Positions 17,768 through 18,196 of a DNA stretch of 64,000 nucleotides are shown here, one piece after another. The DNA comes from an uncultured Pseudomonadota bacterium (GTDB lineage Bacteria; Pseudomonadota; Alphaproteobacteria; RF32; CAG-239): contig CADAJN010000003.1 of NCBI GenBank assembly GCA_902788365.1, forward strand, positions 58,656 to 122,655, in the 5' to 3' direction. Positions within the stretch are counted from its first letter, which is position 1. Each line of letters starts with the position of its first letter. The notes below the pieces were generated by a model that saw only the letters and a list, made by a program, of their open reading frames with translations, did not search any database and was not told the origin of the DNA. Both the position numbers and the translations under genes were made by a program.

Positions 17768-18196
17768 AAAAACCTCAGATAATGAGCTTAATACGAAGAA
17801 AGTTTTCTCACGCGGTGTAAACAATAGCTACATAAGCGAGAAAACTTTCAAGTAGATACCAGCTCATTCAAGCTGTAAACCTCGGATAATGTGTCAGATG
17901 CGACGGAAGTCTGTTGGCGACGTGTAGATAAAGCTACATAAGCGAGAAAACTTTTATTAAATAACCACCTATCAGTTCAAGGTTAAAACCTCGGATAATG
18001 AGCTTAATACGAAGAAAGTTTTCTCACGCGGTGTAGATAATACTACATAAGTGAGAAAACTTTCAAGTAGATACCAACTCATTCAAGCTGTAAACCTCGG
18101 ATAATGTGTCAGATGCGACGGAAGTCTGTTGGCGACGTGTAGATAAGGCTACATAAGCCAACAGACTTCCTAGCAGATGACCATTAGACGAGATTT
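17768..18196. repeat. Cluster A of palindromic extragenic elements (4 units of about 105 bp; REP/RPE-like)
   Basis: Units begin AAACCTCGGATAATG and end ACAAGTAGATACCAGCT(AGACGAG). Central hairpin GTGTAGATAAnGCTACA. Units 1/3 and 2/4 are pairwise near-identical. Confidence 0.85.

Follow-up and report, generated by a model that had tools for sequence, protein, structure and literature searches.

What are the palindromic repeats of roughly 105 bases that recur between genes in this stretch of DNA (the window, 64,000 nt in full), and what holds them where they are? The preliminary description counted at least 11 copies at five loci, and the count stands. The 16-nt terminal motif AAMCTCGGATARYRWG, with at most one mismatch, matches 11 times in the window, in the same five clusters and on the plus strand only, against 0.05 matches expected from shuffled sequence. 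The profile search nhmmer picks up 11/11 units, all on the plus strand, and TRF detects periods of 106-109 and 215 bp across 17769-18158. The repeats belong to a lineage-specific, uncatalogued family of hairpin-forming elements from uncultured rumen Alphaproteobacteria. The units in the window, with helices numbered P1 to P6 from the base of the hairpin to its apex, are the following.

Unit A1, 17769..17875, plus strand: arm type a on both sides, lacking the 3' strand of P1 and ending in AGCTCATTCAAGCTG; the gene-distal unit of the rpoC array.
Unit A2, 17876..17984, plus strand: a chimera with a 5' arm of type b and a 3' arm of type a.
Unit A3, 17985..18090, plus strand: arm type a on both sides, with the same end as A1.
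Unit A4, 18091..18197, plus strand: the complete reference unit, with P1-P6 and two tandem GA/GA internal loops.
Unit B1, 26812..26901, plus strand: a variant with the internal hairpin ATACCACGG..CCGTGGTAT.
Unit B2, 26902..27012, plus strand: complete, scoring 98.3 bits with the covariance model.
Unit B3, 27017..27150, plus strand: complete, with a nested 27-nt insert, GAGCCTTCGGCGCTGCTTACGCAGTGG, from 27057.
Unit C1, 33468..33573, plus strand: a chimera with a 5' arm of type a and a 3' arm of type c.
Unit C2, 33574..33668, plus strand: truncated, its 3' terminus gone.
Unit D, 43014..43126, plus strand: complete, single, arm type c.
Unit E, 48189..48296, plus strand: complete, single, arm type d.

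The inverted termini first described as common to all copies are shared by only some of them. The 3' terminus TAGACGAG is borne only by A4, B2, B3, C1, D and E, whereas A1 and A3 end in AGCTCATTCAAGCTG, B1 is a variant, and A2 and C2 are truncated on the 3' side. Complete units fold into a single long hairpin both as RNA (z -4.4 to -11.5) and as DNA (z -5.9 to -8.5); for A4, the RNA fold reaches -57 kcal/mol (z = -11.5) and the covariance model gives 102.6 bits. By comparison, A2 forms no hairpin (DNA z = +1.0) and C1 folds poorly (DNA z = -1.5).

A unit is one interrupted hairpin of six helices over ~105 nt. P1 pairs AAAC(C)TCG with CGAG(G)TTT and is followed by a tandem GA/GA loop; P2 is either TAATG/CATTA or TAGC/GCTA; P3 leads to a second GA/GA loop and then to P4; P5 is the variable arm, 9-14 bp long, and P6 is the conserved apical hairpin. 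The two ends, AAACCTCGGATAATG and AAACCTCGTCTAATG, match at 13/15 positions. A conserved central hairpin had been noted from the start and is indeed present, in two covarying forms (GTGTAG..CTACA and GTGTAC..GTACA) rather than one. Watson-Crick pairs replace the GA/GA loops (UC/UC in mRNA) at loci L029 and L060, where the 5' end reads CTCGTCTAGC. Several readings of these parts were set aside by inspection: the GA loops are symmetric 2x2 loops without the 3-nt bulge of a K-turn, and the motifs of CcrM (GANTC), the CtrA box and DNA uptake sequences are missing from some units or far too rare. The P5 arms have no further matches in the window, and their reading as guides or targets was likewise dropped.

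Across 47 aligned distinct units, pairing is retained in 86.9% of cells, compared with 31-41% when the partners are slid. Both sides have changed in 22/39 pairs, versus 8-13 in the slid controls, and the covariation score is 0.341, with controls at or below 0.106. RNAalifold finds compensatory changes in 15/23 predicted pairs. The claim that the arms vary in sequence while staying self-complementary thus holds for the family, the chimeric A2 and C1 being exceptions. The further claim that such arms imply selection on the hairpin is not established: chimeras that do not fold occur, isolated G.T and A.C mismatches are equally frequent (5 versus 5) and give no sign of RNA selection on either strand, and templated repair or gene conversion from arm to arm in a quasi-palindrome would preserve complementarity as well.

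The family extends beyond the window to 40 bovine or rumen metagenome loci; the other 21 of the 61 loci collected are chance matches, mostly to one recurrent human-gut sequence. Together, the window, the strain loci and these 40 loci supplied 52 distinct full-length units. Searched against 185,579 species genomes, the block pattern AACCTCGGATA-N28-40-GTGTAGATAA returned one chance match only, in a Clostridiaceae MAG, while a viral scan returned two, both chance matches inside coding sequence, and plasmids and phages held no match to the family. In Rfam, 4227 covariance models at the gathering threshold reported tRNAs only, and searches by E-value yielded nothing beyond weak generic hairpin matches to miRNA families. 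A literature search for the sequence blocks found unrelated matches only, so the initial impression of an unrecognised sequence family is borne out.

The early comparison to palindromic repeats of the REP, BIME, REPIN and RPE kinds is sound as regards architecture, namely conserved inverted ends and variable, self-complementary inner arms. REPINs have conserved ends, a compensated spacer and tandem clusters (PMC3116915, Bertels and Rainey 2011). The units here resemble them as long hairpins of ~70-110 nt with two highly conserved inverted ends, a less conserved middle in which compensatory changes preserve pairs, tandem clusters, no target duplication and high copy number within one lineage. 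They differ in that their ends are not themselves short GTAG-tagged palindromes, that the apical hairpin and two 2x2 internal loops are conserved, and that they are anchored to stop codons in a single orientation, whereas REPINs are scattered across extragenic space. A hallmark of REPINs is a cognate RAYT gene, usually single-copy and repeat-flanked; no RAYT is known for the present family.

A REP is a single stem-loop of 20-40 bp with a stem of 5-13 bp and a loop of 2-20 nt; fewer than 20 bp separate it from the 3' end of the ORF upstream, to which it can contribute the stop codon (PMC3733652). REPs function as stabilisers and as terminators that are partly Rho-dependent (PMC6061677; bioRxiv 10.64898/2026.03.23.713779). 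The family shares with REPs and BIMEs a place behind genes, in most cases under 20 bp from the stop codon and in some cases providing it, an absence from divergent spacers, a mosaic and modular build, a strain-variable copy number and a proposed role as 3'-UTR stabiliser or terminator. Unlike the REP stem-loop, however, its units are six-helix hairpins of ~105 nt, and they follow one another as direct tandem repeats where BIMEs alternate REP orientation with set linkers. REPs also carry an unpaired tag, GTAG or CGTC, at one end, the CGTC types having a stem that starts with AT and a CCA tail (PMC3733652), and CGTC-tagged REPs are typical of Alphaproteobacteria (Di Nocera et al. 2013, PMC3733652). 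The mRNA-sense start of the units, CCTCGTCTA / AAACCTCGTCTA, contains CGTC, but its CG is paired in P1, and the units lack the 8-9-bp stem, 4-5-nt loop and CCA tail of that class. RPEs are, like these units, alphaproteobacterial palindromic repeats (100-150 bp) that can add residues to proteins, a likeness limited here to C-termini; the typical RPE is an in-frame insertion within a coding region (PMC3733652), whereas the present elements sit after the gene.

Judged by the defining features of REP, RPE and Correia elements, the family does not appear to belong to any of the three, the comparison with RPEs covering their site of insertion. Where they are co-transcribed, Correia (nemis), ERIC and RUP MITEs form long RNA hairpins, and they affect mRNA processing. 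They resemble the units in size (~100-150 bp) and in having inverted ends, yet they show TA duplications, both orientations and, for some, a parent IS, none of which was seen here. A classical MITE of this type, mobilised by a DDE transposase acting on terminal inverted repeats, would account for the ~105-bp size, the agreement of the two ends and the TA found beside the ends in many flanks. It is nevertheless very improbable, because the junctions of ~25 loci show neither a consistent target-site duplication nor a fixed target sequence, and ~600 kb of host-type DNA contains no longer element or parent IS with the same ends. In addition, the strict single orientation to genes is unlike that of DDE-mobilised MITEs, and the structural constraint covers the inner part, not the ends alone.

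The preliminary description did not mention three features: strict polarity with anchoring at stop codons, loops in which purines and pyrimidines are divided unequally between the strands, and arrays that are mosaic and hypervariable. The orientation of the units is well defined: forward-strand scores of the covariance model are 85-122 bits, and reverse-strand scores at the same sites are 18-44 bits. The 3' end of an array (...TAGACGAGGTTT) abuts or overlaps the stop codon of a gene on the opposite strand. In 52/54 clusters, those cut by contig ends being excluded, an opposite-strand ORF of at least 80 aa ends -47 to +27 nt from the 3' end of the unit, and no divergent spacer among the metagenome and window clusters holds an array. 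Most stop codons are found either 0-12 nt ahead of P1 or, giving a protein with the C-terminus ...KLV, at 11 nt within the unit. Overlap between gene and unit is confined to the last 0-12 codons, and copies 30-100 nt past stop codons are rare.

The window illustrates this anchoring at each locus. The last base of A4 (18197) adjoins the rpoC stop codon (18198-18200, minus strand), and the ABC-F gene (27136-28812, minus strand) extends four codons into B3, reading AAA CTC GTC TAA, or K L V stop. The KdsB-like gene (33631-34437, minus strand) enters C2 and acquires the C-terminus ...PYIKSWCLLVIFFLA, where its L029 ortholog ends ...PYIK. Finally, the stop codons of the cyclophilin gene (43125-43127, minus strand) and gcrA (48295-48297, minus strand) fall inside the terminal T-runs of units D and E. 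In all, four proteins have the KLV C-terminus, and the KdsB-like protein has an 11-residue tail derived from the unit. About 25 different genes adjoin arrays, and the upstream genes are housekeeping ones, encoding RpoC, ABC-F, KdsB-like, cyclophilin, GcrA, Rho, RbfA, Era-like, RecR, FabH, RlmE and TrmB proteins. Arrays occupy orthologous gene ends in both host groups for cyclophilin, the KdsB-like protein, RbfA and RpoC.

A site at or over the stop codon, in fixed orientation to the gene, and an imperfect ~100-nt palindrome of conserved shape and variable centre also recall integron attC sites, or other targets of site-specific recombination, that fold and mark gene cassettes. This reading is hardly credible: the ends AAACCTCG / CGAGGTTT do not fit RYYYAAC / GTTRRRY, the units follow one another directly and have no intervening ORFs, the adjoining genes are core housekeeping genes (rpoC, rho, rbfA), and the called genes of loci L001-L006 and L071-L078 include no integrase. 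Identity with integron attC sites was accordingly rejected on core sites, ORF-attC cassettes and integrase alike.

The two strands of a unit are unequal in composition. On the plus strand, A exceeds T in 52/52 units and G exceeds C in 49/52, and nearly all unpaired bases are purines, which become pyrimidines in the mRNA sense; YC dimers number 12.6 per unit in that sense, against 5.6. As RNA, the plus strand is the more stable in 36/52 units, while as DNA the two strands fold equally well. Minimum-energy folds contain 64 G.U pairs on the plus strand and 109 on the minus strand, counts that include spurious pairs.

Lying directly behind a gene, with an A-run, a G+C-rich stem base (CCUCG/CGAGG) and a U-run of 3-7, the units also resemble intrinsic (bidirectional) terminators. 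They differ from these in having a ~100-nt interrupted stem-loop and a repeated family sequence, and in that a separate canonical terminator sometimes follows the unit. In the host group with a GC content of 0.40, a canonical terminator module, GCCGGTTGC..GCAGCCGGTTTTT, lies within or after arrays in gene-sense orientation, and at L001 and L010 the rpoC unit is preceded by the stop codon and followed by a canonical terminator. In the window, the 160 nt after each of the five arrays hold no other terminator-like hairpin; directly past unit D there is a promoter-like site of the next gene (42973-42945, minus strand).

These signals bear on the idea that each unit is a plus-strand small RNA gene, antisense to the end of the neighbouring gene and ending at its own hairpin and U-run. 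The strand that this idea requires is the one with the tandem G.A loops, the purine-rich unpaired positions and, in 36/52 units, the more stable RNA. TTTTT follows P1 on the plus strand at D and E, and a promoter-like ATGAAA-18-TATAAT (10/12) ends 12 nt before D. However, the scan for promoters of plus-strand small RNAs found its only candidate at D and no promoter-like site upstream of arrays A and E, and units within tandem arrays leave no space for promoters of their own. The plus strand shows no G.U excess, Rfam offers no match, and the opposite orientation is seen in the terminator module of host group 2 and in the canonical terminators that follow the rpoC unit. Small RNA genes are therefore a decidedly unlikely identity for the units.

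Arrays vary markedly between close relatives. One locus may hold 1-4 units among strains whose flanks differ by at most 1.4%, and strains that share an identical RpoC have either 1 or 4 units at the rpoC locus. At gcrA, where the window has the single unit E, other strains have 2-4; seven array forms occur in eight strains, with spacers of 212-535 nt and flanks that differ at 0-7 positions per 500. Strain arrays at this locus also include the B1-type module. Units within arrays are direct tandem repeats, and turnover may proceed through deletion, duplication and conversion between them. Chimeric units that do not fold comprise A2, C1 and two units in L033, and arm type c appears at three loci across strains or species: D in the window, gcrA in L076 and rpoC in L010.

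The spread of arm type c and the tolerance of non-folding units would suit a purely selfish REPIN-like element without host function, moved as single-stranded DNA by a RAYT/HUH-type or other duplication-free enzyme. Polarity and position would then follow from the exposure of single-stranded DNA at particular sites and on a particular strand, be it the lagging-strand template or, immediately beyond the place where ribosomes come off the mRNA, the non-template strand; purifying selection would act against insertions elsewhere. The arm c unit at three loci, the non-folding chimeras, the neutral wobble test, the junctions without target-site duplication or fixed target sequence and the REPIN-like architecture (PMC3116915) all point this way. 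So does the window, where 5/5 loci lie behind minus-strand genes and none behind plus-strand genes, a bias with an estimated p of ~0.05 given ~30 minus-strand genes of 55 as counted from the ORF list. The minus-strand genes of the window are probably leading-strand genes, and a replication-strand effect may lie behind the bias. Contig JAEEGL014685521.1, by contrast, has arrays on both strands (L047, L066). A crude search for the HUH/Y...NP motif in ~600 kb of DNA from these organisms found no RAYT-like sequence, the arrays kept at orthologous gene ends across two host groups fit retention, and neutral insertion predicts further copies 30-100 nt past stop codons, where they are rare. A purely selfish origin is thus possible, though on balance doubtful.

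Beyond the observed anatomy, covariation, polarity, position, mosaicism and strain variability, we lean, with some reserve, towards REPIN/BIME-like non-autonomous repeats that serve as co-transcribed 3'-UTR hairpins stabilising or terminating the transcript; both transcription and function are what we infer from these features. Transcription would place the units at the start of the 3' UTR of the upstream gene, as the complement of the plus strand. By analogy with REP elements, the hairpin would block 3'-to-5' exonucleases, and it may help to end transcription, either alone through its stem and U-run or jointly with a canonical terminator next to it. The base of the hairpin is no more than ~12 nt from the stop codon, so that a terminating ribosome must melt P1-P2, and translation of the upstream gene could in this way gate folding. 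Spread to many gene ends would presumably need a mobilising activity that leaves no target duplication.

This preferred reading meets several difficulties. A stabiliser or terminator role alone does not explain strict polarity, since a hairpin or bidirectional terminator works either way round. The tandem G.A and purine-rich loops, seemingly a designed structure, lie on the strand antisense to the gene, and the unit is dispensable for termination in L001, L010 and host group 2, because a canonical terminator follows. Further points against it are the neutral wobble test, the equally good DNA folding of both strands, the greater RNA stability of the plus strand in 36/52 units, the chimeras that do not fold and the bias of the window towards minus-strand genes, which may be a replication-strand effect; nor was a transposase found. 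Polarity would find a direct explanation if the units were portable, orientation-dependent 3'-end modules in which upstream translation sets the folded or open state. In mRNA sense, the unpaired positions of a unit are pyrimidines, spread over four UC loops, several GUC loops and an apex rich in U, and the base of the hairpin lies within the footprint of a ribosome halted at the upstream stop codon. The folded state would protect the 3' end, and the open state would offer a YC-rich entry for Rho or a nuclease. Strict polarity would be owed to this translation-gated function or, alternatively, to integration coupled to the site where translation ends. We consider such a module unlikely.

Whatever their role, the units add a new member, from an uncultured rumen alphaproteobacterial lineage, to the extragenic palindromic repeats of bacteria. 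The family is sharper than the classical ones in its near-absolute polarity, its anchoring within ~12 nt of stop codons and the purine/pyrimidine asymmetry of its unpaired bases. If these features are functional, it would provide a natural system for studying REP-like tuning of mRNA 3' ends and ribosome gating. The arrays can serve as strain markers in metagenomes because they change faster than the flanking DNA, and they will also interrupt assemblies and lead to faulty gene calls, for example by adding the C-terminal extensions KLV or SWCLLVIFFLA.

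The five clusters of roughly 105-nt hairpin-forming units reported in the preliminary description are all present where it placed them: A1-A4 after rpoC (17768-18196), B1-B3 after an ABC-F gene (26811-27150), C1-C2 after a KdsB-like gene (33468-33665), D after a cyclophilin gene (43016-43124) and E after gcrA (48191-48294). Its count of at least 11 copies also holds: searching with a unit-derived profile finds each of the 11 again. The terminal motif AAMCTCGGATARYRWG, allowing one mismatch, matches 11 times in the window, always on the + strand, against 0.05 matches expected from shuffles, and Tandem Repeats Finder marks 17769-18158 as repetitive, with periods of 106-109 and 215 bp. 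Folding of the copies, proposed earlier as a check, shows that complete units form one long hairpin far better than shuffles do (RNA fold z = -4.4 to -11.5; DNA fold z = -5.9 to -8.5). The inverted termini described as common to all copies are shared by complete units; A1 and A3, which are incomplete, carry the 3' end AGCTCATTCAAGCTG in place of TAGACGAGGTTT. Similarly, the inner arms are self-complementary in complete units but not in A2 (z = +1.0) and C1 (z = -1.5), chimeras that combine the 5' arm of one type with the 3' arm of another and form no hairpin. C2 is a truncated unit, and B1 is a variant.

The reference unit, A4 (18091-18197, described on the + strand), contains six helices, numbered from outermost to apical:

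P1: 5' CTCG / 3' CGAG; most copies add AAAC (5') and GTTT (3')
Internal loop between P1 and P2: 5' GA / 3' GA
P2: 5' TAATG / 3' CATTA
P3: 5' GTCA, preceded by a 1-nt bulge / 3' TGAC
Internal loop between P3 and P4: 5' GA / 3' GA
P4: 5' TGC / 3' GCA
Internal loop between P4 and P5: 5' GAC / 3' TA
P5, the 14-bp variable arm: 5' GGAAGTCTGTTGGC / 3' GCCAACAGACTTCC
Internal loop between P5 and P6: 5' GAC / 3' AA
P6: 5' GTGTAG / 3' CTACAT, with apical loop ATAAGG

Covariation supports this structure. When 47 distinct units are aligned with MAFFT, the six helices are paired in 86.9% of cells, compared with 31-41% in controls whose 3' partners were slid by 1-3 columns; both sides change in 22 of 39 pairs (8-13 in the controls), and the covariation score is 0.341 (at most 0.106 in the controls). 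Compensatory pairs include AAACC..GGTTT and GAAAC..GTTTC in P1, TAAT/ATTA and TAGC/GCTA in P2, and GTGTAG..CTACA and GTGTAC..GTACA in P6. At least 12 different P5 arms occur across the units, bearing out the earlier view that the inner arms differ in sequence yet remain self-complementary. Although palindromic, the element has a definite orientation, since R1, a covariance model of the family, gives complete units 85-122 bits on the forward strand and 18-44 bits on the reverse.

The family is not confined to the window. A degenerate metagenome scan returned 61 loci, with true copies in 40 and chance matches in the remainder, and the hosts fall into two groups with G+C of about 0.43 (window-like) and about 0.40. 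The window RpoC occurs unchanged on bovine/rumen metagenome contigs, and the GcrA adjoining unit E is MBR1903949.1, from an 'Alphaproteobacteria bacterium'. Scanning two conserved blocks in 185,579 species genomes gave only a chance match; the host is therefore absent from that set, and no catalogued genome has the block pair. Rfam, 72,556 plasmids, 50,697 phage records and the literature strings of unit sequence searched all gave no match, in agreement with the initial impression of an uncatalogued family.

Units are consistently placed relative to genes. Contig ends leave 54 clusters intact, and in 52 of these the array's 3' end (in the sense of the window + strand) adjoins or overlaps the stop codon of an opposite-strand gene. 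With orthologues collapsed, about 25 different genes have arrays, including housekeeping genes for RpoC, ABC-F, KdsB-like protein, cyclophilin, GcrA, Rho, RbfA, an Era-like KH protein, RecR, FabH, RlmE and TrmB. For the majority, 0-12 nt separate the stop codon from the P1 that follows it (TAA followed by AAACCTCG, or TAAG followed by AAAC...). The remaining genes have their stop codon 11 nt within the unit, giving proteins with the C-terminus ...K-L-V (AAA CTC GTC TAA). The array's other side borders either a convergent gene's end or the beginning of the next gene in the same direction, and never a divergent promoter region among the clusters examined. The gene-proximal unit is essentially always complete, while distal units are often partial. 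Some gene ends are fused to units through small deletions or frameshifts: compared with locus L029, the window KdsB-like protein has an extra element-encoded tail, SWCLLVIFFLA (33631-33668), and the L037 cyclophilin gene extends about 25 nt into its unit. Additionally, rpoB is preceded by the ABC-F ATPase gene and its array rather than the usual rplJ-rplL (26592-27150), with GGAGTATAAT on the + strand about 60 nt before unit B1.

Most likely, the element is a REPIN/BIME-like non-autonomous repeat in the 3' UTR of many housekeeping genes, where it would take up the initial 100 to several hundred nucleotides. The distance between a REP and the 3' end of the ORF upstream is less than 20 bp, and a REP can provide that ORF's stop codon (PMC3733652); REP325 is a partly Rho-dependent terminator and stabiliser (bioRxiv 10.64898/2026.03.23.713779). 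By analogy, the mRNA-sense hairpin may shield the upstream message from 3' exonucleases and help to end transcription. With P1 beginning 0-12 nt past the stop codon, or ahead of it, a terminating ribosome would have to open the base of the hairpin. In E. coli, REPs located no further than about 15 nt from a stop codon reportedly stall ribosomes and lower expression, in work attributed to Liang, Rudd and Deutscher (2015, Mol Cell). A stabiliser or terminator role alone leaves the strict polarity unexplained: either it matters (to Rho, a nuclease or another protein) that the mRNA form has pyrimidine-only loops, or insertion is strand-specific.

Base composition is strongly asymmetric. Across the 52 distinct full-length units gathered, A exceeds T on the + strand in all 52 and G exceeds C in 49; since paired bases cancel out, nearly all unpaired bases are + strand purines. 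In mRNA sense they are nearly all pyrimidines, with 12.6 versus 5.6 YC dimers per unit. Both 2x2 loops, GA/GA on the + strand and UC/UC in mRNA, are kept while the flanking helices covary, and natural variants at L029 and L060 have the first loop changed to Watson-Crick pairs.

Evidence on which strand is functional points both ways. Stop-codon anchoring speaks for the mRNA sense, as does a canonical terminator module, GCCGGTTGC..GCAGCCGGTTTTT, in arrays of the second host group, functional only in gene sense. In L001 and L010 the lone rpoC unit is likewise followed by a canonical terminator, no other terminator-like hairpin lies within 160 nt after any of the five window arrays, and at D the next gene's promoter-like site directly follows the array. 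Tandem G.A and purine-rich loops, typical of folded RNA, speak instead for the + strand, whose RNA folds more stably in 36 of 52 units; one promoter-like site lies ahead of D, with none ahead of A or E. Isolated helix mismatches (five G.T, five A.C) and DNA folding, equal for both strands, are neutral. GC skew follows gene orientation in the window and suggests that the minus strand is leading there. A replication-strand effect may thus underlie the polarity of the window loci, all five of which follow probable leading-strand genes, but one 225-kb metagenome contig has arrays on both strands (L047, L066).

Units are assembled from interchangeable modules, and arrays turn over quickly. With identical RpoC, the window and L002 have four units after rpoC, and five strain loci have one; downstream of the ABC-F gene, 49-bp half-unit tandems take the place of window B2 in some strains. 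Eight strains with identical GcrA have spacers of 212, 319, 360, 371, 456, 463 (two strains) and 535 nt after gcrA. The outer array ends are constant, and comparison with the window strain shows 0-5 differences per 432 positions of flank and 0-7 per 500. Starting from an ancestor of 4-5 units, deletions between short segments common to the units (such as CCAGCT) and one duplication can produce these forms, and the turnover needs no special machinery. Some units carry in their 5' arm a nested 27-nt insert, GAGCCTTCGGCGCTGCTTACGCAGTGG, containing two small hairpins. It lies at 27057-27083 in B3 and is found again in units elsewhere, at other loci and in other strains (L033, L060, L071-L078), and is therefore a sub-module travelling with the family. 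In the group with G+C of about 0.40, arrays at L016, L023, L036, L039, L062 and L063 contain T-type partial units, with a canonical terminator hairpin (GCCGGTTGCAGCAATAAGCAGCCGGTTTTT, gene sense) in place of the hairpin's 3' half, making the terminator module itself a repeated part of the family. Neither a target-site duplication nor a fixed target sequence was found at unit junctions, and about 600 kb of sequence yielded no longer element with the same ends and, in a crude motif search, no RAYT-like motif.

The family works like REP, REPIN and BIME elements. Of the REP/BIME or Rickettsia palindromic element (RPE) likeness first proposed, the architecture survives as that of REPINs, yet the units lack the GTAG-type ends and random placement of REPINs, the 20-40-bp tagged stem-loop of REPs and the alternating orientation of BIMEs. 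RPEs are ruled out by behaviour, as units are not inserted in frame inside genes; DDE-type MITEs are ruled out by the single orientation and absent duplication, and the units are not attC sites. The family is real, well supported and new to the catalogues searched, while its class is familiar. The strictness of the polarity, the anchoring at stop codons, the asymmetric loops and the very rapid turnover of arrays merit specialist attention without being categorically new.

The window also contains other repeats. Just after tRNA-Pro (8936-9012), a structured unit of about 110-130 nt, unrelated to the family (TGAACCGGC..GCTGGTTCGCACTCAAGCGAAAGG..CGGTCGGC..GCCGATGAGCGCAGAGCACGTAGCGCAGCGAAGTCTTCCCG; 9046-9535), occurs three times in tandem; the copies, each followed by its own terminator-like hairpin and T-run, look like a small tandem RNA gene family; Rfam gave only noise for them, including a weak RtT match (15 bits). 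Another tandem repeat, with a 158-bp period (2.3 copies, 97% matches), occupies 56792-57166. Each copy carries a terminator hairpin and TGGTGCCGG..., which corresponds to the 3' end of the neighbouring tRNA-Thr (57149-57224, - strand), and the repeat looks like repeated attachment-site remnants of integrating elements. A 75-140-nt intergenic block (...AATCGGACTTGGTAAGAGCACGTTCCAACAAAAGCAAAAACCGCTCC...) occurs four times at 58703-63332, spaced about 1.2-1.6 kb apart between genes of a low-GC stretch (0.34-0.37), with neighbours including an alpha/beta hydrolase and a weak HD-domain protein; this may be a cassette-like array. Directly after tRNA-Arg (30220-30296) lie two copies of a terminator hairpin (30295-30328 and 30479-30512) and a perfect tandem of two 29-bp copies (30350-30407).
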